Program-made: the position numbers and the translations under genes
In this document: piece after piece, positions 7,743 through 19,954 of the stretch
Position numbering within the stretch: the stretch's first letter is position 1
How the letters are laid out: each line of letters opens with the position of its first letter
Assembly: GCF_003334405.1 (NCBI RefSeq)
Contig: NZ_QOWM01000011.1
Reading direction: 5' to 3' (one strand)
Length of the DNA stretch: 64,000 bases
From: Escherichia coli
GTDB taxonomy: Bacteria; Pseudomonadota; Gammaproteobacteria; Enterobacterales; Enterobacteriaceae
Notes under the pieces: model-generated
The model's input: the letters and a program-made list of their open reading frames with translations, nothing else
Database searches by the model: none
Told to the model about the DNA's origin: nothing

Positions 7743-10325
7743 TTAGCCAACGACCAGATTGAGGAGTTTACCTGGTACGTAAATCACTTTACGTACAGTA
7801 ACGCCATCAAGATATTTTGCTACCAGATGTTCCTGGCCAGCACGTTCGCGAACCTGTTCTTCCGTTGCGTCCACCGGAACGGTGATTTTGGCACGGACTT
7901 TACCGTTAACCTGCACCACGACCAGCGTGGAGTCTTCCACCATCGCTTTTTCGTCAGCAACCGGCCACGGCGCGTTGTCGATATCGCCTTCGCCTTTCAG
8001 TTCCTGCCACAGCGTGAAGCAGATGTGCGGGGTGAACGGGTTAAGCATACGGACAACGGCCAGCAGTGCTTCCTGCATCAGAGCGCGATCCTGCTCGCCA
8101 TCGGTTGGTGCTTTCGCCAGTTTGTTCATCAGCTCCATAATCGCCGCAATTGCGGTGTTGAAGGTCTGACGACGGCCGATATCATCGGTCACTTTAGCGA
8201 TCGTTTTATGCACATCGCGACGCAGCGCTTTCTGATTTTCAGTCAGCGCATCAACGTTCAGTGCCGCAACATCACCTTTTGCTGTGTGCTCGTAAACCAG
8301 TTTCCAGACACGTTTCAGGAAGCGGTTAGCCCCTTCCACACCGGATTCCTGCCATTCGAGAGTCATATCAGCCGGAGAAGCAAACATCATAAACAGACGA
8401 ACGGTGTCCGCGCCGTAACGTTCAACCATCACCTGCGGGTCGATACCGTTGTTCTTCGACTTGGACATTTTGCTCATGCCGGTATAAACCAGTTCATGGC
8501 CTGCCGCATCTTTCGCTTTCACGATACGGCCTTTCTCGTCACGTTCAACGATAGCATCAACCGGGGAAACCCAGTTACGTTCGCCGTTTTCGCCAACATA
8601 GTAGAAGGCATCTGCCAGCACCATACCCTGACACAGCAACTGTTTCGCTGGTTCGTCAGAGTTCACCATGCCTGCATCACGCATCAGTTTGTGGAAGAAG
8701 CGGAAGTAGAGCAGGTGCATAATGGCGTGTTCAATACCACCAATGTAGATATCCACCGGCAGCCAGTAGTTAGCCGCTTCGGAATCCAGCATACCTTCTT
8801 TGTACTGCGGGCAAGTGTAGCGCGCATAGTACCAGGAGGACTCCATAAAGGTGTCGAAAGTGTCGGTTTCACGCAGTGCTGGCATACCGTTAACGGTAGT
8901 TTTCGCCCACTCCGGATCTGCTTTAATCGGGCTGGTAATGCCGTCCATTACCACATCTTCCGGCAGGATCACCGGCAGCTGGTCGTCCGGGGTCGGCATT
9001 ACGGTACCGTCTTCCAGCGTCACCATCGGAATCGGCGCGCCCCAGTAACGCTGACGGGAAACACCCCAGTCGCGCAGGCGGTAGTTCACTTTACGCTCGC
9101 CAACGCCCATCGCAGTCAGTTTATCGGCGATGGCGTTGAAGGCCGCTTCATGGTCAAGACCGTTGAACTCGCCAGAGTTGAACAGCACGCCTTTTTCAGT
9201 CAGGGCTTGCTGAGAAAGATCTGGCTCAGAGCCGTCAGCTGCCAGGATAACCGGTTTGATGTTCAGGCCGTATTTAGAGGCAAACTCGTAGTCGCGCTGG
9301 TCGTGCCCCGGTACCGCCATAACTGCGCCCGTGCCGTACTCCATCAATACGAAGTTTGCTGCCCAAACGGGAATTTCTTCGCCCGTTAATGGGTGAACCG
9401 CTTTAAAGCCAGTATCGACGCCTTTTTTCTCCATCGTCGCCATTTCAGCTTCGGCAACTTTGGTGTTACGGCATTCGTCAATAAAGGCCGCCAGTTCAGG
9501 ATTATTTTCCGCCGCTTTCTGCGCCAGCGGATGACCCGCAGCTACCGCCAGGTAGGTACAACCCATAAAGGTGTCCGGGCGGGTAGTGTAAACGGTCAGC
9601 GTGTTGTCATAGTCGTTAACGTTGAAGGTGATCTCCACGCCTTCGGAACGACCGATCCAGTTACGCTGCATGGTTTTAACGGTGTCTGGCCAGTGATCCA
9701 GTTTATCCAGATCGTTGAGCAGCTCGTCAGCGTAAGCAGTGATTTTGATAAACCACTGCGGGATCTCTTTACGTTCAACTTTAGTATCGCAGCGCCAGCA
9801 GCAGCCGTCGATAACTTGTTCGTTCGCCAGTACGGTCTGGTCGTTCGGGCACCAGTTGACCGCAGAAGTCTTCTTATATACCAGGCCTTTTTTATACAGC
9901 TCGGTGAAGAATTTCTGTTCCCAACGGTAGTATTCCGGCGTACAGGTTGCCAGCTCGCGGCTCCAGTCATAACCAAAGCCCAGCATTTTGAGCTGGTTTT
10001 TCATATACGCGATGTTGTCGTACGTCCACGGTGCCGGAGCGGTGTTGTTTTTCACCGCCGCGCCTTCCGCAGGCAGACCAAACGCGTCCCAGCCGATCGG
10101 CTGCAGGACGTTTTTGCCCAGCATACGCTGGTAGCGGGCGATCACGTCACCGATGGTGTAGTTACGTACGTGGCCCATGTGTAGTCGACCAGAAGGATAG
10201 GGAAGCATAGACAGGCAGTAATACTTCTCTTTGCTCTCGTCTTCGGTTACTTCAAATGTGCGCTTCTCATCCCAATGAAGCTGTACTTTGGATTCTATCT
10301 CTTCCGGGCGGTATTGCTCTTGCAT
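7743..10325 (-). CDS. leuS: Leucyl-tRNA synthetase
   Basis: ORF track 7743..10466 (907 aa); HMGH and KMSKS class I motifs; start placed at internal Met ([15 protein letters not shown]) giving 860 aa, matching recalled LeuS length. Confidence 0.93.
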
Positions 10326-10559
10326 GGCAGCCAGTGGTCCTGTTTTCAATACGGCTACAAATGTAGCGTTGAGGTGGTTTTTCAGATCCGCATAGCATAG
10401 CCCAAACGTCCGCGTCAAAACAGCCTTTCGCGCACTCGACGTTGAAATGATGCCCGGATTATTCATACATTAATTTACAGAGTTTGTGGGCGTATTAGCA
10501 AAGCAAGGAACAAAGAACGTCTATTATTATAGTCAGTTAACGACCCGGGAGATGAAACG

Positions 10560-11042
10560 ATGAACAAGGTTGCTCAATATTACCGTGAACTGGTTGCGTC
10601 ACTGAGCGAACGCCTGCGCAATGGCGAACGTGATATCGACGCACTGGTGGAACAGGCGCGCGAGCGCGTAATAAAAACAGGGGAGTTAACGCGAACCGAG
10701 GTCGATGAGCTGACGCGAGCTGTCAGACGTGACCTGGAAGAGTTCGCCATGAGCTATGAAGAGAGCCTGAAAGAAGAATCTGACAGCGTCTTTATGCGGG
10801 TGATTAAAGAAAGCTTGTGGCAGGAGCTGGCAGACATCACCGATAAAACGCAGCTTGAATGGCGCGAAGTTTTCCAGGACCTCAATCATCATGGGGTTTA
10901 TCACAGCGGAGAAGTGGTCGGGCTGGGAAATCTGGTCTGCGAGAAATGTCACTTCCATCTCCCGATCTACACACCGGAAGTGCTGACGCTATGCCCGAAA
11001 TGTGGTCATGACCAGTTCCAGAGACGCCCGTTTGAGCCGTAA
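10560..11042 (+). CDS. ybeL: YbeL, DUF1451-family protein with C-terminal CxxC...CxxC zinc-ribbon
   Basis: ORF track 160 aa; paired cysteine motifs CEKC...CPKC. Confidence 0.88.
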   Translation: MNKVAQYYRELVASLSERLRNGERDIDALVEQARERVIKTGELTRTEVDELTRAVRRDLEEFAMSYEESLKEESDSVFMRVIKESLWQELADITDKTQLEWREVFQDLNHHGVYHSGEVVGLGNLVCEKCHFHLPIYTPEVLTLCPKCGHDQFQRRPFEP

Positions 11043-11075
11043 TAGTCTGATTTCGCACAGCAATAAAGAGAATAT

Positions 11076-11108
11076 GGGCCGAATGAAATTCCCCGGCCCT
11101 TGTTTTTA
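11076..11108 (+). terminator. Putative intrinsic terminator downstream of ybeL
   Basis: Hairpin gggccg(11076-81)/cggccc(11094-99) followed by T-rich run ttgttttta. Confidence 0.55.
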
Positions 11109-11111
11109 TCT

Positions 11112-12095
11112 CTACAGTAAATCTTCAGTCTCACGAATTTCCTGACTGACATCTCTGGTTCCGGATGACTGAACTTTACGATACAGGTCGAGAGCCTGTC
11201 GGAGATCGACAGGTCTTCCTTCTCCGTAGTGATACATAATGGCCAGGTTATACCAGGCAGTGGCGTCATTGCATTCAGCGGCTTTCGTAAACCATTCAAA
11301 GGCAGCCTGATAATCTTTCTCAACGCCTTGTCCGTGTTTATACATATAACCGATGTTGACGTAAGCGCCGACGCTCCCCTGAGCGGCAGCCTTCAGATAC
11401 CAGTACATCGCTTGCTTATAGTCCTGGTCCACCCCTTCGCCAGCGTTATAATCCCATGCAATTTGAAACTGGGCGTGCCGATTACCCTGCTGTGCGCTTT
11501 TCAAATACCAGAATGCGGCGAGTGTCTTGTTTTGAGCAACGCCTTTTCCGTCTTCATAAAGATCGGCCAGATTGTTTTGCGCGTCACTATGGCCTTGTAA
11601 TGCAGCTTGTTTGTACCAGAAAAATGCCAGCGCATAGTCTTTTGCGACTCCGTTGCCATTTCTGTACATCCACCCAAGATTATTTTGCGCATAAGACATT
11701 CCGCTCTCCGCGGCTATCTGATACCAGACAACCGCTTCTTTATAATTGGGGGCTTCTCCACGATCCAGTGTCCAGCCAAGGGCGTTGGAAGCGAAAGTAT
11801 GGCCTTGTAGGGCAGCTTTTTTCAGCCAGAAGATGGCTTGCTCATTATCTTTATGACGGCTTTTATCCTCGGTATACTTTTGCCCTAAGGAATACTGTGC
11901 TTCACAATGACCTTGCTCAGCGGCCAGCTTCAGCCAGTAAAAGGCTTTTTCGTCGTCCGGAGAATCAATTGCGCTATCGCGATTATAATAAAACCCAACA
12001 ATATATTGAGCCTCGCAATCGCCTTTTTCAGCACGTTCGATAATCTCATCTATTGATAAATTATCGCAGCAACTTGACGTGAAAATCATTATCAT
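11112..12095 (-). CDS. ybeQ: Sel1-like repeat (SLR/TPR-like) protein YbeQ, no signal peptide
   Basis: ORF track 327 aa; repeated A..W...AA.QG...AQ..LG..Y..G.GV motifs; true start may be 2 codons downstream. Confidence 0.88.
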   Translation of the reverse strand: MIMIFTSSCCDNLSIDEIIERAEKGDCEAQYIVGFYYNRDSAIDSPDDEKAFYWLKLAAEQGHCEAQYSLGQKYTEDKSRHKDNEQAIFWLKKAALQGHTFASNALGWTLDRGEAPNYKEAVVWYQIAAESGMSYAQNNLGWMYRNGNGVAKDYALAFFWYKQAALQGHSDAQNNLADLYEDGKGVAQNKTLAAFWYLKSAQQGNRHAQFQIAWDYNAGEGVDQDYKQAMYWYLKAAAQGSVGAYVNIGYMYKHGQGVEKDYQAAFEWFTKAAECNDATAWYNLAIMYHYGEGRPVDLRQALDLYRKVQSSGTRDVSQEIRETEDLL

Positions 12096-12252
12096 TTCCT
12101 TATGGTTGCAGATAAAACATATTATATTTTTATGTGTTCCATTTTTGCGTAAGCCTTATTTTATGCGTATTATGTCGCGTCAGAAAAGTATAAATAAACG
12201 AGCCTCGCAATGCGGCTAATATTCATTTAATGAATATTTAAGGATAAATTAT

Positions 12253-12960
12253 ATGGACATGGAGTCGCAAAAAATATTGTTTGCACTTTCCACTCCGATG
12301 GAAATACGCAATGAATGCTGTTTACCTTCGCATTCATCACCCAAAATGTATTTAGGTACATGCTTTTTTGACCTTTCTTCCTCATGGGGAATTGATGACC
12401 GTGATGACCTGCTGCGCACAATTCACCGAATGATCGATAACGGTCATGCCGCTCGGTTGGCAGGGTTTTATCACCGCTGGTTTCGTTATTCGCCATGTGA
12501 ATGGCGTGACTATCTTGCTGAACTAAATGAGCAAGGTCAGGCTTATGCGCAATTTGTCGCCAGCACCGCCGAATGCTGTGGCGAAGGGGGAATCAAAGCC
12601 TGGGATTATGTCCGGATGGGTTTTTTAAGCCGAATGGGCGTACTTAATAACTGGTTGAGCGAAGAAGAAAGTCTATGGATCCAGTCGCGCATTCATCTAC
12701 GGGCTCTACGTTATTATAGTAACTGGCGGCAATACTTTGCCGGTTATACCTTTGGTCGGCAATATTGGCAGTCTCCCGAAGATGATCATCTGCCTTTATT
12801 ACGCGAATTCTTAGCGCGTAAAGAATACGACGATTCCGGCAATGATATGTTTTATCAATTATTTGCCAGTGATGATGCGTATTACCCTACCTTGTCCTGG
12901 CAACCATTGGCTTACTATTCTGCATGCCCGGAAACGCTTAAGGATATGAGCGACCTATGA
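12253..12960 (+). CDS. ybeR: DUF1266-family protein YbeR
   Basis: ORF track 235 aa; clear paralog of the ORF at 15050..15757; stop overlaps djlB start (ATGA). Confidence 0.9.
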
Positions 12961-14384
12961 AAAATTGCTGGAAGATCCTCGATATAGAGGAAACGACTGA
13001 CGTCGATATTATCCGCCGCGCTTATCTGGCGCTGTTACCGTCCTTTCATCCAGAAACCGATCCGCAGGGTTTTAAACAACTTCGTCAGGCGTATGAGGAG
13101 GCGCTACGGATTGCGCAGTCGCCTGCTAAATCTGTTTGGCAACCAGAAGAATATGAGGTAGCAGAACATGAAATTCTGCTCGCCTTTCGTGCGTTACTTG
13201 CCTCTGATAGTGAACGTTTTCTGCCCTCCGCCTGGCAGCGATTCATTCAGCAATTAAATTATTGCTCGATGGAGGAGATTGATGAATTACGCTGGTCGCT
13301 GTGCACAATCGCCATGAACACTGCCCATTTATCCTTCGAGTGCGTGGTGTTATTAGCAGAAAGATTGCGGTGGTTACAGGAGGAAAATACCGGGGAAATA
13401 GACGAAGAAGAACTGGAATCCTTTTTATATGCCATTGCGAAGGGGAATGTTTTTAACTTCCAGACCATTCTGCATCTGCCCGTTGCCGTGCAAAATGACA
13501 CCATCGATTTTTACCAAATGTTCGCTCGGATTTGGTCATCGCATCCACAATGGCTGACATTGTATTTAGCGCAACATCGCGCAGTGATTATCCCCGATGA
13601 TGCAAAACTGCACAGAAATTTACTCCGCTGGTATAGCGCAGGTCGCCTGGATATCCCCGAACTTCTGGATTACGCCCAGTCATGGCGGGAAACTGAACCT
13701 GATAATGAAGATGCGCCTTATTATGAATACGCGCAACGCGTCTATTGTGGAGAAGGCGAAAGCCTGTTGGCAGAACTTTGTGACTACTGGCGCGAGTATC
13801 CCTCCACCCAGGCGGATGCTTTAATGTTGCAATGGTGCCGTCAGCATCGGGTCGATTATTACCCATTACTGGTGATGATGATTGAAGCGCGTGATCTGGT
13901 TAACGATCAGGGAAAACCGCTACTTTATGTCCCCGGCGACAGCGCCCGTACGCGTTTTCATTTATACGAAATACTCAGCGATGAAAAACTCTCTGCGCTG
14001 GGGCGTTCACTGGTCGAGATGGTTTTGCACAAAGGACGTAAGCCGCGGATCTCACTCACGCGTGATACAGAACATACCTTATGGCCATTATATCTAGTTG
14101 CCAAACAATTAGTGCAGGCCTGCCAACCTACAGAAGAATCATTAATGCCGATTGTGAGCCGCCTTGATGCAGAAAATCGTTGTCCACTGGAAGCATTAAT
14201 TATTCGTCGATTATTAATTCAGGCGGCGAATTTTACCGAGAAGCAAACTGTTGAACCGGAGCCGCAACCGCAGCCAATGCCCGTTGACGATGGTGGGCCA
14301 GGCTGTCTGGGCATCATTAAAATTATTTTCTATATTTTTATCTTTGCTGGTTTGATAGGGAAAATACTCCATCTGTTCGGGTGA
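12957..14384 (+). CDS. djlB: J-domain-like co-chaperone DjlB (YbeS) with C-terminal hydrophobic anchor
   Basis: ORF track 475 aa; N-terminal J-like region ...[21 protein letters not shown]...; C-terminal hydrophobic tail [23 protein letters not shown]. Confidence 0.88.
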
Positions 14385-14393
14385 CAGTCGACG

Positions 14394-14948
14394 TTAATGT
14401 GCGGGAAGCCCGGCAAGTAATCTTTCCGCATTTTTGTAATGTTGTTTGGCGGCCAGTTTTAACCATTTTTGAGATTCATAATGGTTAACATTAATACCTG
14501 AGCCATTTCTGTAGATCAAACCTAAAGTATATTGAGCATGAGCATACCCTTGTTCAGCTGCTTCCTTATACCAGAGAATTGCTTTACGGGTGTCGGGTTT
14601 GACCCCCAGACCTTTGAGGTAGATCCACCCCAGTTTACTTTGCGCGCGTGGATTTTCCTGTTCCGCTGATTGCTCATACCAGTATCTCGCCTGTGTATAA
14701 TCCAGTGGTTTACCGTCGCTACCATGAAGATAAAATTCTCCAAGGCGATATTGCGACGTTGAGTGACCATGAATCGCGGAAAGCTCCGTGGCTGCCGTGG
14801 TGAATGGAAGACTGCCCGGTGAGCTTAAATAATCAAAGGCATAATTCACCATGGCTTTATCACGCAACGTCGTTTTCTTGGGTTGGCTAATACAGGTAAT
14901 TGCTGCAACTATAAAAATTGCGAATATATACATTAATTTTTTATTCAT
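14394..14948 (-). CDS. ybeT: Sel1-like repeat protein YbeT with N-terminal signal/possible lipoprotein signal
   Basis: ORF track 184 aa; N-terminus [19 protein letters not shown]...; Sel1-like repeats. Confidence 0.88.
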
Positions 14949-15049
14949 GTGTGAATGCTTCGATTTTCTTTTTATTTTGAAAGCGTCAAGTTTATACTCA
15001 TCAATAATAAAAAAGTAGTCAGTTAATGCACTTAAGGGATTATTAACAA

Positions 15050-15757
15050 ATGAATAAGGAAGAACAATATCTTCTTTTTGCGCTTTCTGCGCCCATGGAA
15101 ATACTTAATCAGGGTTGCAAACCCGCGCATGACTCGCCAAAAATGTATACTGGGATAAAAGAATTCGAGCTCTCATCATCCTGGGGAATAAATAATCGTG
15201 ATGATTTAATTCAGACTATTTATCAGATGACTGATGATGGTCATGCCAATGATTTAGCTGGCTTATATCTGACATGGCATCGCTCTTCCCCTGAAGAGTG
15301 GAAAGCATTAATTGCTGGTGGCTCGGAGAGAGGGTTGATTTATACCCAATTCGTTGCCCAAACCGCTATGTGCTGTGGGGAAGGGGGAATCAAAGCCTGG
15401 GATTATGTTCGAATGGGGTTTCTGTCACGGGTCGGTGTGCTCAACAAGTGGCTGACGGAAGAAGAGAGTTTATGGCTGCAATCGCGCGTCTATGTACGAG
15501 CTCACCATTACTATCACAGCTGGATGCACTATTTTTCCGCCTATTCGTTAGGACGTCTCTACTGGCAATCTTCTCAGTGCGAAGACAACACTTCGCTACG
15601 CGAGGCGCTAACCCTGTACAAATACGATAGCGCCGGGAGTCGTATGTTCGAAGAGCTGGCAGCGGGAAGCGATCGTTTCTATGCCACGCTTCCCTGGCAG
15701 CCATTAACTGTCCAGTCTGAATGCCCGGTAACGCTTAAGGATGTGAGCGACCTATGA
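15050..15757 (+). CDS. ybeU: DUF1266-family protein YbeU (paralog of YbeR)
   Basis: ORF track 235 aa; aligns along its length with YbeR; stop overlaps djlC start. Confidence 0.9.
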
Positions 15758-17205
15758 AAACATGTTGGCAAATCCTCGAAATTGAAAGCACGACGCAAAT
15801 AGACATTATCCGCCAGGCTTATCTTGCTCGCTTACCGTTGTGTCATCCCGAAACCGATCCGCAAGGGTTTAAAGCATTACGCCAGGCCTATGAAGAGGCC
15901 CTGCGACTGGCGGTAAATCCTGTCGAGGAAGCAGATGATGAAGAAAAAGATGCTGCCGCTGAACATGAAATACTACGTGCATTCAGGACATTACTGGATT
16001 CAGAAAGTGATCGTTTTCAGCCTTCCGCCTGGCAGAAATTTATTCAGCAATTAAATACCTGGAACATGGAGGATGTCGATCAATTACGCTGGCCGCTGTG
16101 TGCAATCGCCATAGAAGCGCGATATCTTTCATTAAATTGTGCTTCTTTGCTGGCAGAGCGTTTGAACTGGCATTCATTTAATGACAGCGAAGGAATGGAT
16201 GAGGAAGAAAGGGAGGCTTTTCTTGAGGCCATTCAGGCTGGTGATTGTTTCGATTTCCTTAGCCTTCTGGAATATCCCATTGCGTTGCAGAACCAGACTG
16301 TTGAGTATTACTTCGCGCTGGAACGTTGCTGCCGTTACCATCCTGACTATGTCACTGCGTTTTTGGCGATGGAAGGTCCGTGGTTAATTCCTGATGATGC
16401 AAAGTTACATCGCAAACTGTTGCGCTGGTACAGCTCGGTGCAAACAGGTATGGCGGAACTCATTCCTGTCGCTCAACAGTGGCAAACGGAAGAACCAGAA
16501 AGCGAAGATGCCCGGTATTACTTGTGTGCACAACGTTTGTACTGCGGCGAGGGGGAAAGCCTGCTTGCCGATCTCTGCGCGTACTGGGAAAGTTACCCAT
16601 CTACACAAGCTGATAATTTGTTGTTGCAGTGGAGCAAGCGTCATTGCCCGGATTATTTCGCGTTATTAGTGATGGTTATCGAAGCGCGGAGCATGGTAGA
16701 TGCGCAAGGTCAACCGCTGAAATATGTTCCTGGTGAGAGCGCCCGGACGCGGCTGTTATGGGCGGAGATTTTACATAGCGGAAAATTATCGCCGTTAGGT
16801 CAATCGTTTATTGAGTCGTTATTCTTCAAGCGCAAAGCATGGGCGTGGTGGAAATCGAGAGTCGGTAGCGAGACAGAGCAAGATTCACCGTTCCTGGATT
16901 TGTATCGGGTAGCGGAACAGGTAGTACTTGAAGCGTTTCCGAAACAAGAGATGCTGGCCCGTCTTAATACAAGGCTGGAAGGCGGAGATGCTCATCCATT
17001 AGAGGCCATTGTCACCCGGATGCTTTTGACGAAAGTGAAACTCGAGCCGGAGGATGAAGATGTCGATGAGCCAACACCTGAAAATCATGAAGAAAAAAAT
17101 GATGAGGGTGAAAAACCACAGAGCATTACCAGCATTATCAAAATCAGTTTAACGGTGCTGGTGATAGGTTATGCTCTCGGCAAAATCGCGATGTTGTTTA
17201 GCTGA
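15754..17205 (+). CDS. djlC: J-domain-like co-chaperone DjlC (YbeV) with C-terminal hydrophobic anchor
   Basis: ORF track 483 aa; N-terminus nearly identical in pattern to DjlB ([10 protein letters not shown]); C-terminal hydrophobic segment. Confidence 0.88.
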
Positions 17206-17226
17206 CGATGTGTTTTTTGCGCCGAT

Positions 17227-17257
17227 GCCGGATGCAGCGTTTACGCCGCATCCGGCA
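17227..17257. repeat. REP (repetitive extragenic palindrome) element
   Basis: gccggatgcagcgtttacgccgcatccggca imperfect palindrome between convergent djlC and hscC. Confidence 0.7.
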
Positions 17258-17264
17258 GCCGTGT

Positions 17265-18935
17265 TTATGGGATCTCAATGGCTAAATAATCGCTCGCCCG
17301 CCGCCGAACTTCATCCACGCGGGCCATATCGTTTGACTGCAACGCCGCATCAAAATCGGTGATCACCCGGCCGATCTCTTCTCGCTCGTCACCCAGCGCC
17401 CGCGCCCACAACTCTTCCAGTTTGGCTTTAAAGGTGCGATTGATGAGCATATCGCGCGGATAAATTTTCAATGCGGATAACCGCGTCCGACTCTCTTCAA
17501 TCTGCTGCGCGCTCAATGTTACCGGGCTGTGGTTAATCACTCTGGACTTAACGCTGCCGTCTTCCAGAAGCACGTCAACTTCAAGCAACCCGTTGATATC
17601 ATAACTAAAGCGAATATCAATCGACTGATAAGCCCCGGTTTTCTTCAACGGCACATCGAAGGATTCCACCAGAATGTTGTTTTTAACTTTGTGGTTTTCT
17701 CCCTGATAGACGTTAACCGTAATTGAATCCTGTTCCGGGTGCATGGTTGAATAAGTTTCTACACGCGACACGGGCACAGTGGTGTTTCGTTCAATAATCG
17801 GCGAGAAAATGCCGGAAACGCCCTGGCGGTTAACTTCAACGCCCAACGAGTAAGGGCAAATATCAGTGAGGATTACCTCTTCAATATCTTCACTGCGTAA
17901 GCGGCAGGCGGCCTGGATTGCTGCGCCCAGCGCGACAATGGTGCTCGGATCGTAACTTTGATACGGTAATTTGCCAAACAGACGCACGGCGATTCGCTGC
18001 ACCAGCGGCATTTGTGACGCGCCGCCAACCAGCACCAGACTGTCGATTTGACTCGGCTTCAGACGCGCATCGCGCAACGCCTGTTCAATCGGCACTCGCA
18101 AGCGATTGAGCAGCGGCAACCACAAATCTTCCAGTTCGTTCTCGTAAAATTCGCATTCCCGCGTTTCTTCCTGATACTGCCAGCGAATGTGCAATGGCGA
18201 TTGATTGCTACATTTTGCCGCTTCCACACAGGCGTACAAGGCTGCCAGTTCACTCTCGTTAAGCGTGGTCCTGGCGACATCCGCGCGTTTTAAAACCTCA
18301 TCGACCAGCATATGGGTAAAATCTTCGCCACCAAGAAAGTTGTCGCCAGCGGAGGCGTGAACTTCAATCACCGGCGTGGCGTACTCAAGCACCGTAACGT
18401 CAAACGTGCCGCCACCGAGATCAAACACCAGCGAACGGGTATTTTGTTGGGTATGCAGGCCATACGCCATCGCAGCTGCTGTGGGTTCATTAATTAAGCG
18501 TACCGCATTTAACCCGGCTAACTCCGCTGCTAAACGGGTATGCTTGCGTTGTTCATCGCTGAAATAAGCCGGAACGGAGATCACCACATCTTTAATCGGA
18601 CGTTGCAGAAATTCTTCGGCATCTTCTTTTAATGAGCGTAATACCAAAGAGGACAGTTCTGGCGCGTTAAATGTGTCGCTGCCTAACCGCCAGTTGGTAT
18701 TACTGCCCATTGCACGTTTAAATAACGCTGCCGTTTTATCCGGATGCGAAGTACGCCGTGATACAGCCGGTTTTCCGACTAAAATATGATTATTTTCATC
18801 CATGCTAATTATGGATGGTGTTAAATATTCACCGAACTTATTTGGAATTAATTGCGCGGCACCGTCTTTCCAGACGGCAATTAAACTATTGGTAGTACCG
18901 AGATCGATACCAATGGCGAGTTCTGCATTATCCAT
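17265..18935 (-). CDS. hscC: Hsp70-family chaperone HscC
   Basis: ORF track 556 aa; Hsp70 ATPase signatures (IGIDLGTTNS, DLGGGTFD); length matches HscC. Confidence 0.93.
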   Translation of the reverse strand: MDNAELAIGIDLGTTNSLIAVWKDGAAQLIPNKFGEYLTPSIISMDENNHILVGKPAVSRRTSHPDKTAALFKRAMGSNTNWRLGSDTFNAPELSSLVLRSLKEDAEEFLQRPIKDVVISVPAYFSDEQRKHTRLAAELAGLNAVRLINEPTAAAMAYGLHTQQNTRSLVFDLGGGTFDVTVLEYATPVIEVHASAGDNFLGGEDFTHMLVDEVLKRADVARTTLNESELAALYACVEAAKCSNQSPLHIRWQYQEETRECEFYENELEDLWLPLLNRLRVPIEQALRDARLKPSQIDSLVLVGGASQMPLVQRIAVRLFGKLPYQSYDPSTIVALGAAIQAACRLRSEDIEEVILTDICPYSLGVEVNRQGVSGIFSPIIERNTTVPVSRVETYSTMHPEQDSITVNVYQGENHKVKNNILVESFDVPLKKTGAYQSIDIRFSYDINGLLEVDVLLEDGSVKSRVINHSPVTLSAQQIEESRTRLSALKIYPRDMLINRTFKAKLEELWARALGDEREEIGRVITDFDAALQSNDMARVDEVRRRASDYLAIEIP

Positions 18936-19018
18936 TGCATTTATATCTTGAAAGAAAAAGAGATAAACAGATTAAGACCACCCAGGTAACGCGTGGTGAT
19001 CTTAATCAATGACGTGTG

Positions 19019-19954
19019 TTAAGCGTAAAATTTCAGACGATCAGCCAGTAAATCAACAAAGCCCTGACGATCAACATCGACCATTACGGTGGCATTCGGT
19101 TTATTGCCTGTCAGATAATAATAATCAACAACCGTCATACCCTGGGTATATTTCCCCTGTGTTTCCACGCCAACCCAGCGCTCAACAGAGGTAAATAACT
19201 CCGGTTTCAACAGCCAGGCGATGGTGCATGGGTCATGCAGTGGTGCGCCGACAAAGCCCCATTTTTCGTCTTTATGATATTCGAGGAAGAAATCCAGCAG
19301 TTCGGCAACAATGGTTGAAACAGGGTTACCAATCGCGCGGAAACGCTCGGTGTCTTCAACGTGGATTTGTGCTTTATGAGTAACATCCAGACCGGCCATC
19401 ACCACCGGGATCCCTGACTGGAAGACAATTTCTGCCGCTTCCGGGTCAACGTAAATATTAAATTCAGCCGCAGGCGTCCAGTTACCCAGCCCCATAGCGC
19501 CACCCATAATCACGATACGGGCAATTTTGCTATGCAGTTCCGGATGGCTATTGAGCAGCAAGGCAACGTTAGTTTGCGGTCCGGTAGACACAATGGTGAC
19601 AGGTTCCGCACTTTCACGCAGCGTTTTCGCCATCAGCTCTACCGCCGTACAGTTTTGCGGTGCGAATGTCGGTTCCGGTAATGCCGGGCCGTCGAGACCG
19701 CTTTCGCCGTGCACATTGTCCGCGATAATCAACTCACGCATTAACGGTTTTACCGCGCCGCCTGCTACCGGAATATCGGTGCGATTAAGCAAGGTCAGCA
19801 TACGCAGAACATTGCGTAAGGTTTTTTCTGGTGTCTGGTTTCCGGCGGAAGACGTAATTGCTTTGACATCAAGCTCTGGTGAGGCGAGGGCGAGAACTAT
19901 TGCGATAGCGTCGTCATGACCTGGGTCGCAATCTAACAGAATTGGCAGTGCCAT
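19019..19954 (-). CDS. rihA: Pyrimidine-specific ribonucleoside hydrolase RihA
   Basis: ORF track 19019..19987 (322 aa); DCDPGHDD nucleoside hydrolase motif; start placed at internal Met ([15 protein letters not shown]) giving 311 aa. Confidence 0.9.

Follow-up and report, generated by a model that had tools for sequence, protein, structure and literature searches.

Two genes for proteins with Sel1 repeats, ybeT and ybeQ, are found close to hscC on the Escherichia coli chromosome, and this arrangement raises the question of whether their products work in the same compartment of the cell and, if not, whether one of them changed its compartment after a duplication. The DNA analyzed (the window, 64,000 nucleotides) covers the E. 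coli chromosome around leuS-ybeL-ybeQ-ybeR-djlB-ybeT-ybeU-djlC-hscC-rihA-gltLKJ. Over 6.8 kb around ybeT the sequence agrees with that of E. coli C and further strains at 100% identity, and the ybeT product is identical to RefSeq WP_001035673.1. All relevant features are listed in Table 1.

Table 1. Features of the ybeQ-hscC region with their positions in the window.
Feature	Position	Strand	Basis
ybeQ, predicted soluble Sel1 protein of 325 aa with 7-8 repeats, without N-terminal hydrophobic segment	11112..12089	-	
ybeR (DUF1266) and djlB, paralogs of ybeU and djlC	12253..14384	+	Protein and DNA similarity
ybeT CDS, Sel1-repeat protein of 184 aa	14394..14948	-	ORF list; RefSeq, identical sequence in E. 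coli C; Pfam Sel1 x3
YbeT residues 64-169, three Sel1 repeats	14442..14759	-	Pfam PF08238; AF2 helix pairs; PDB relatives
YbeT residues 23-63, basic linker (PKKTTLRDK) and helical hairpin ahead of the Sel1 array	14760..14882	-	AF2
ybeT codons 1-22, n-region MNKK and 17-residue uncharged segment (5-21), proposed signal-anchor or signal peptide	14883..14948	-	
ybeT Cys19 codon (TGT), earlier read as possible lipobox Cys	14892..14894	-	
AT-rich divergent intergenic region between ybeT and ybeU-djlC	14949..15049	.	GC 0.277
ybeU (DUF1266) and djlC (tail-anchored J-protein of HscC), operon divergent from ybeT	15050..17205	+	ORF list, RefSeq
hscC, specialized Hsp70	17265..18935	-	ORF list, RefSeq

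The ORF of ybeQ as listed extends from 11112 to 12095 and encodes 327 aa from the first ATG; the RefSeq start lies two codons later (325 aa) and is supported by an AGGA motif 7 nt ahead of the second ATG. DjlC ends in a C-terminal hydrophobic tail at residues 464-482. With a GC content of 0.429, ybeT is the gene with the lowest GC at the locus. An Rfam scan of positions 10000-19500 revealed no RNA family, and a terminator and promoter scan of positions 14300-15100 gave nothing above shuffled expectation. PADLOC returned no defence-system match for YbeT, YbeR, YbeU, DjlB, DjlC or HscC; for YbeQ there was one weak PtuA match (E = 1.2e-4), no stretch of which passes alone.

The answer depends initially on whether the N-terminus of YbeT is real. 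A signal-like hydrophobic N-terminus on a protein of 184 aa had been claimed from the sequence alone, and this is borne out by the ORF, the identity with the RefSeq protein and the hydrophobicity and charge of the segment. The uncharged run comprises residues 5-21 (17 aa, 13 of them strictly apolar), is preceded by the +2 charge of the MNKK stretch and contains the sole Cys of the protein at position 19. The longest N-terminal hydrophobic run of YbeQ amounts to 8-10 residues. An in-frame upstream start, which would have removed the signal-like N-terminus, was searched for and no canonical one was found: the listed ORF opens at the first ATG, GTG or TTG after a stop codon, and stop codons stand directly ahead of the ybeT ATG in Escherichia sp. 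MOD1-EC7003, E. sp. E1V33, E. whittamii and the L015 lineage. Forms of YbeT with 244 aa are C-terminal read-throughs and not N-terminal extensions.

For the determination of selection on the segment, the most distant Escherichia-type orthologs (L013 and L014; 70% identical to YbeT) were used as the reference for dN and dS. Codons 1-22 showed a dN of 0.16-0.18 at a dS of 0.84-0.89, compared with a dN of 0.13-0.15 for the Sel1 domain and of 0.35-0.38 for the linker of residues 23-63, which is the least conserved part of YbeT (dS of about 0.85 or more). Purifying selection thus acts on the N-terminal segment with the same strength as on the Sel1 domain. The low dN over codons 1-22 indicates that the hydrophobic N-terminus is translated and selected, and makes a downstream start unlikely. 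Two observations that had pointed to a shorter protein were rejected. A start at Met33 is called in a single contig (P0015), in which the full ORF is intact, and it is also contradicted by the purifying selection on codons 1-22. N-terminally truncated forms that seemed to occur in many strains (cluster P0004, beginning with MTCISQ) are an artefact, as the genes of their representatives open at the end of a contig, with ATT taken as the start codon.

In the single-sequence AF2 model of YbeT, residues 3-20 are helical and residues 21-31 form a break of low confidence; two helices (28-41 and 50-60) then make up a hairpin, and Sel1-type helix pairs follow up to residue 179. A search with residues 1-76 against 1.84 billion representative proteins recovered distant family members (P0307, P0309 and P0315/L026), which are 36-52% identical over the full length. 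All members of the family alignment, which comprises eight sequences only, have retained a hydrophobic run of 16-18 aa (8/8), down to 36% identity.

The second part of the claim, that YbeQ has no signal-like N-terminus and carries more Sel1 repeats, agreed with the Pfam annotation of both proteins: YbeT has three PF08238 matches (residues 64-98, 100-135 and 136-169; E = 1e-11, 1e-9 and 3e-5), and YbeQ has seven matches at E<=0.001 and a weak eighth at E = 0.027, which together span residues 28-307. In the AF2 model of YbeT paired helices extend over residues 62-179, with a pLDDT of 80-95 across residues 81-180, which fits an alpha/alpha hairpin solenoid, and all PDB sequence matches to YbeT are Sel1-repeat proteins. 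In the distant member L026, a YbeT-type N-terminus precedes an array of about seven repeats within 331 codons (with one in-frame stop), and the number of Sel1 repeats is therefore labile. The MIFTSSCC stretch of YbeQ was considered as a remnant of a YbeT-like segment and rejected, since no hydrophobic N-terminus of greater length occurs in the orthologs of E. whittamii, L015, Salmonella and Citrobacter, where the upstream frames are hydrophilic or closed by stop codons.

Where the segment directs the protein was judged by pattern rules, by counts of charge and hydrophobicity, by comparison with proteins encoded in the same window and by comparative genomics. A length of 16-18 aa in the YbeT family corresponds to that of the runs of KdpC (16) and PBP2 (17) from the same window; the 17-residue stretch of YbeT itself is short for a membrane span and lies within the range of cleavable signals. 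Every family member has one to three K/R in the three to four residues ahead of the run, which gives a charge of +1 to +3 (8/8). Over the 15 residues behind the run, the distant members have net charges of -1, +1 and 0 and L013/L014 of +1/+2, and the N-flank is the more positive one in four of the eight members, equal in one and lower in the three members of the E. coli clade. At the level of the family the charge pattern tends to favour an N-in/C-out orientation; E. coli YbeT itself is ambiguous. An independent hint comes from cysteine content, as there is no Cys after the segment in any of the eight family members, compared with 2-8 Cys in YbeQ orthologs (five in YbeQ of E. coli) and 2-3% Cys in YbeR, YbeU, DjlB and DjlC. 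A Cys-free region would fit an oxidizing compartment and hints at a periplasmic domain.

Based on these features, export of the Sel1 domain is likely, the anchored and the cleaved form taken together. The reading we prefer, with a probability of roughly 0.6, is that YbeT is a small envelope-targeted Sel1-repeat protein with an uncleaved N-in/C-out signal-anchor in the inner membrane and a periplasmic Sel1 domain. The MNKK n-region and the hydrophobic segment would engage the Sec/YidC insertion machinery, and the segment would most likely stay in the inner membrane, uncleaved or poorly cleaved, leaving the basic linker, the capping helical hairpin and the three Sel1 repeats on the periplasmic side. 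YbeQ is predicted to be a soluble cytoplasmic protein. The proposed split into an exported YbeT and a cytoplasmic YbeQ is accordingly kept as regards the N-termini, with a conserved envelope-targeting segment in YbeT and none in the orthologs of YbeQ; the export of the Sel1 domain has the rank of a prediction. Neither YbeT nor YbeQ, DjlB or DjlC turned up in the supplementary data searched, which came from a systematic study of membrane-protein localization and from the STEPdb paper. Membrane insertion, orientation and lack of cleavage are features that we infer, as is a functional link to HscC/DjlC.

The most serious alternative concerns orientation. YbeT might be anchored N-out/C-in or attached peripherally, so that its Sel1 domain would be cytoplasmic and could bind YbeU, DjlC or HscC directly; in that case neither of the Sel1 proteins would have changed its compartment and one would just be tethered. 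Four K/R within 15 residues behind the run give the members of the E. coli clade a net charge of +3 there, which exceeds the +2 of the N-terminus; K31 is invariant, and K/R24 and R29 are largely conserved. Among the comparators of the window that have a non-cytoplasmic region behind their segment (LptE, RlpA, ChiQ, a further lipoprotein, GltI, ChiP, KdpC and PBP2), the charge of this flank ranges from -3 to +1 and is thus at most +1 in 8/8; the +3 of YbeT falls outside this range and, by the positive-inside rule, weakens the N-in/C-out assignment. The functional domains of the partners at the locus, namely HscC, the J-domains of DjlB/DjlC and DUF1266, are cytoplasmic as well. However, the N-terminal K/R in every family member disfavour translocation of the N-terminus, the C-flanks of the distant members are neutral or acidic, and the lack of Cys behind the segment sets the family apart from every cytoplasmic protein of the locus. 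We consider a cytoplasmic Sel1 domain rather unlikely.

A signal-anchor is favoured over an ordinary Sec/SPase I signal peptide cut after Ser21 (CIS/QP), which would turn mature YbeT into a soluble periplasmic protein; export is common to both readings and cleavage is the sole difference. With its 21 residues the segment has the typical n/h/c layout, and E. coli, E. whittamii and L015 offer an acceptable -3/-1 pair of Cys and Ser (Cys-Ile-Ser), followed by Gln-Pro. Moreover, many bacterial Sel1 proteins are secreted, and 4BWR and 1OUV are among the PDB relatives, of which the latter was deposited as "secreted protein". The site is not conserved, however: L013/L014 read CIF-Q with Phe at -1, and in P0307 and L026 no signal-peptidase I site was found at the end of the run, with sites only inside the hydrophobic run. 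The segment is furthermore as conserved as the mature domain, which is unusual for a cleaved signal, and the mature N-terminus would be basic with a net charge of +3 in 15 residues. The missing conservation of the site together with the conservation of the segment speaks for an uncleaved signal-anchor, and cleavage at Ser21 appears improbable.

The possible lipobox Cys of the sequence-only reading did not hold. Cys19 is preceded by Thr at -1, Ile at -2 and Ala at -3, and the resulting Ala-Ile-Thr-Cys deviates from the lipobox [LVI][ASTVI][GAS]C and matches none of the three patterns applied, PROSITE PS51257, DOLOP and G+LPPv2. PS51257 and G+LPPv2 recognize every annotated lipoprotein of the window (LptE, RlpA, ChiQ and WP_000856353; 4/4), and the DOLOP pattern recognizes three of the four, missing LptE. 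Cys19 occurs in the Escherichia-type clade only, where it is invariant together with the preceding Ile-Thr in the 7/7 ortholog sequences examined; alignment column 19 is occupied by Tyr in P0307, P0309 and L026, which retain the hydrophobic segment, and a lipid-modified Cys is hence not a property of the family. The hydrophobic segment is predicted not to be a lipoprotein signal, and the old label "outer membrane protein" is then unlikely to be right. That Lgt modifies Cys19, LspA cuts ahead of it and the product is sorted to the outer membrane (with Ile and not Asp at +2) would match this label, the position of Cys19 at the end of the run, its invariance and the disordered linker behind it, as found in many lipoproteins, but is highly improbable in view of the failed patterns, the Tyr replacement and a RefSeq/PGAP name for YbeT that lacks the word lipoprotein.

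The supposition that the two modules go back to a simple duplication, with one Sel1 copy having changed its compartment, found support for a part of the genes only. YbeR and YbeU are 59% identical and DjlB and DjlC 50%, and at the DNA level positions 12280-13315 and 15077-16112 are 67% similar. This similarity starts 27 nt inside ybeR/ybeU and extends into djlB/djlC, and no shared DNA was found in the intergenic regions of the two modules. The paralogy of ybeR-djlB and ybeU-djlC is therewith established, and a common origin by duplication is not demonstrable for the Sel1 genes. Between ybeQ and ybeT there is a single repeat-level DNA match of 84 nt, and the proteins align with 36% identity in several equally good registers. 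Since each repeat of YbeT scores best against the same repeat of YbeQ (repeat 4), the similarity is generic and at the level of the repeat.

The loci of related bacteria were compared as well. Contigs were scanned for DjlB/DjlC with very narrow peptide patterns, which yielded eight loci, and further contexts were collected by way of YbeU homologs and exact-protein look-ups; a homolog search with YbeQ was dominated by long unrelated Sel1 proteins and yielded no ortholog information. Salmonella (L018) and Citrobacter enshiensis (L019) possess both DUF1266-Djl pairs and a single colinear YbeQ ortholog (49 and 59% identity, respectively) without hydrophobic N-terminus. With only 12 nt (Salmonella) and 72 nt (Citrobacter) between the djlB-like and the ybeU-like gene, ybeT is absent from these loci. 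The presence of both pairs indicates that the DUF1266-Djl duplication predates the split of the genera, with a single Sel1 gene in Salmonella and Citrobacter. In Pseudomonas there is a single DUF1266-Djl-HscC core without Sel1 gene. A close relative (L013/L014; YbeL 96%, HscC 87%) contains ybeT-ybeU-djlC-hscC and lacks ybeQ-ybeR-djlB. In two other enterobacterial contigs (L025 and L023) a YbeT-type gene occupies the position of ybeQ next to ybeL, and a DUF1266 gene is encoded divergently from it in L025. A YbeT-type gene at the ybeQ site implies that the anchored and the soluble Sel1 forms are positional alternates. The gene neighbourhoods are summarized best by regarding the anchored and the soluble Sel1 forms as interchangeable accessories of DUF1266-Djl modules. 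Subfunctionalization after a simple duplication of a module, as suggested before, is one possible reading; paralogy was found for the DUF1266-Djl pairs only.

The gene ybeT is found beside the DUF1266-J-protein operon and hscC in E. coli, in three other Escherichia lineages and in L013, L014 and L015, and it is divergent from the DUF1266-Djl operon in every ybeT locus examined. The HscC modules of Salmonella, Citrobacter and Pseudomonas are without a YbeT-type gene. Of 5426 complete E. coli genomes, 4292 (79%) carry ybeT and 4448 carry ybeQ, and in some strains ybeT was lost through IS1-associated deletions. Upon over-expression of SlyA, ybeT is up 4.1-fold and ybeU-hscD (djlC) 2.8-fold; both are marked as members of the H-NS regulon, and ybeT is annotated there as "Conserved outer membrane protein" (PMC5797941). 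It is also listed as a "variable" gene and among the targets of OmrA, in a table composed mostly of envelope proteins (PMC3318445). A TraDIS phage screen flagged ybeT, and the Keio knockout behaved like the wild type (bioRxiv 10.1101/2025.12.01.691526). DjlC is a tail-anchored inner-membrane protein that stimulates the ATPase of HscC, and DjlB is inferred to act alike; Cd2+ sensitivity of HscC and DjlB/DjlC mutants is the sole reported phenotype, no client is known, and HscC, DjlB and DjlC were all below detection in proteomics (PMC8215388).

Transcription of ybeT and of ybeU-djlC diverges from an AT-rich region that is silenced by H-NS and derepressed by SlyA, and YbeT would probably bind proteins as an adaptor at the outer face of the membrane to which tail-anchored DjlB/DjlC recruit HscC. 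The adaptor role is proposed because ybeT is divergent from, and co-regulated with, ybeU-djlC; a link to HscC/DjlC is thus suggested by adjacency and co-regulation. A third variant of the module, in L013, L014 and L015, consists of a protein of 315-319 aa with a textbook cleavable signal peptide beside a tail-anchored J-protein of 447 aa. With the YbeT family as the other example, tail-anchored J-proteins of the DjlB/DjlC type seem to be encoded recurrently next to proteins that are predicted to face the periplasm. As a speculation that we regard as a long shot, the HscC Hsp70 system could operate from both sides of the inner membrane: in the periplasm an adaptor, a Sel1 protein or another one, would detect or retain a client of the envelope and signal to the cytoplasmic J-domain and Hsp70 via contacts between transmembrane helices, and the soluble YbeQ would serve the cytoplasmic side of a paralogous module.

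The asymmetry between YbeT and YbeQ is in itself a routine prediction at the sequence level, and ybeT is a weakly expressed, H-NS-silenced and variably present gene. Since an envelope prediction for YbeT is already contained in the annotation, the feature as such was known. Among the Hsp70 systems of E. coli, that of HscC, DjlB and DjlC is the one least understood, and a periplasmic YbeT with a cytoplasmic YbeQ, if true, would narrow the search for clients or signals of HscC and would correct the legacy labels of YbeT as "outer membrane protein" and possible lipoprotein. The main value lies in a cleaner hypothesis, in which YbeT is a signal-anchored periplasmic Sel1 adaptor of the inner membrane beside HscC/DjlC.

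Among known proteins YbeQ is the nearest object of comparison, which like YbeT has a Sel1 fold, is encoded divergently from a DUF1266-J-protein operon near hscC and shares 36% identity over the repeats. Unlike YbeT it has no hydrophobic N-terminus, seven to eight repeats instead of three and five Cys. An N-terminal export signal ahead of a Sel1 array is known from secreted or periplasmic proteins such as c5321/EsiB of E. coli CFT073 (4BWR), Hcp of Helicobacter pylori (1OUV), MotX, ExoR and MerG. These proteins are the best PDB and NCBIfam matches of YbeT, with NCBIfam scores far below the family cut-offs. Their signals are cleavable, and the Hcp proteins contain paired cysteines. In contrast to the secreted Sel1 proteins, YbeT is without a conserved cleavage site and without Cys behind the segment. 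TPR/Sel1 lipoproteins of the AlgK type are envelope repeat proteins like YbeT, which scores 32.9 bits in NCBIfam against a cut-off of 700 bits; unlike AlgK, YbeT lacks a lipobox, and its Cys is not conserved in the family. SEL1L/Hrd3 finally is represented among the PDB matches of YbeT by chains named "Protein sel-1 homolog 1", and no homology beyond the repeats was detected. In SEL1L the Sel1 domain is anchored to the membrane, faces away from the cytosol and works with machinery across the membrane, which offers an analogy to the arrangement proposed for YbeT. As an adaptor of ER-associated degradation, SEL1L/Hrd3 differs from YbeT in being much larger, in having its anchor at the C-terminus and in having a ubiquitin ligase as its partner.

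A third variant of the module occurs in some Escherichia-related genomes, where it lies between ybeL and the Sel1 genes. Its J-protein comprises 447 aa, is tail-anchored and shares about 30% identity with DjlB/DjlC; adjoining its gene is that of a 315-319-aa protein, which has a textbook cleavable signal peptide (e.g., MKHFNLYFFFVLFFSFGAFA, with KQDQ following the cleavage site) and four Cys residues conserved at equivalent positions. With the third module variant there are two cases in which a Djl-type J-protein has a predicted exported protein as its partner. Coordinates of features are listed in the table.

Location of features in the window and at loci of other genomes (L handles)
Feature	Location	Remark
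Third module variant	L014:5761-8081	
Third module variant	L013:7796-8743	
Third module variant	L015:4308-5267	
Third module variant	L002:2944-4272	
YbeT-type gene	L025:488-1045	185 aa, 52% identity to YbeT
YbeT-type gene	L023:346-900	184 aa, 50% identity to YbeT
YbeT-type N-terminus joined to long Sel1 array	L026:187-1182	about seven repeats, 331 codons
DjlB/DjlC counterpart	L007:9815-12688 (Pseudomonas entomophila)	roughly 900 aa
Paired in-frame ATGs of ybeQ	window 12084-12095	two codons apart (MIMIF...)
djlB stop codon end	window 14384	
ybeT stop codon end	window 14394	minus strand
Sel1/DUF1266 divergent intergenic region	window 12090-12252	GC 0.288
Sel1/DUF1266 divergent intergenic region	window 14949-15049	GC 0.277

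On the enterobacterial contigs L025 and L023, ybeL directly adjoins a YbeT-type gene, at the site which ybeQ takes in E. coli, and the hydrophobic N-terminus is present in both encoded proteins. The gene of L025 is divergent from a DUF1266 gene, whose product is 66% similar to both YbeR and YbeU. In the distant YbeT-family locus L026 the Sel1 gene contains one in-frame stop at codon 168, which may point to a pseudogene, to a sequencing error or to recoding. The Pseudomonas counterpart is about twice as long as DjlB/DjlC, with hydrophobic segments close to the C-terminus. Its gene comes after a DUF1266 gene and is convergent with a gene for an HscC homologue (55% identity), and there is no Sel1 gene in the vicinity.

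For YbeQ, the sequence-only reading had assumed 327 aa. Of the two in-frame ATGs, the first has an AGGA Shine-Dalgarno sequence at a distance of 1 nt and the second at 7 nt, a spacing which favours the second and makes the 325-aa RefSeq form the likely product.

The genes djlB and ybeT are convergent, with 9 nt between them (14385-14393), and a search of 14300-15100 for a terminator-like hairpin found none. In the 244-aa YbeT variants P0001 and P0003 the ybeT stop is lost, resulting in read-through antisense to the djlB 3' end. The stretch 14385-15100 is hit by IS1A insertions and deletions in other E. coli strains: in TB354 (L016), which also has a frameshift in hscC, IS1 replaces the djlB 3' end, the entire ybeT and the ybeU 5' end, and in VL40 (L017) it lies within the ybeU 5' end. 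Among complete E. coli genomes, ybeT is missing from about 21%; ybeQ has no match at all in about 18% and none covering at least 80% of the gene in 29%.

Between the divergent Sel1/DUF1266 intergenic regions no sequence similarity was detectable. Both are extremely AT-rich compared with the mean GC of 0.512 across the window, which fits the H-NS silencing described in the literature.
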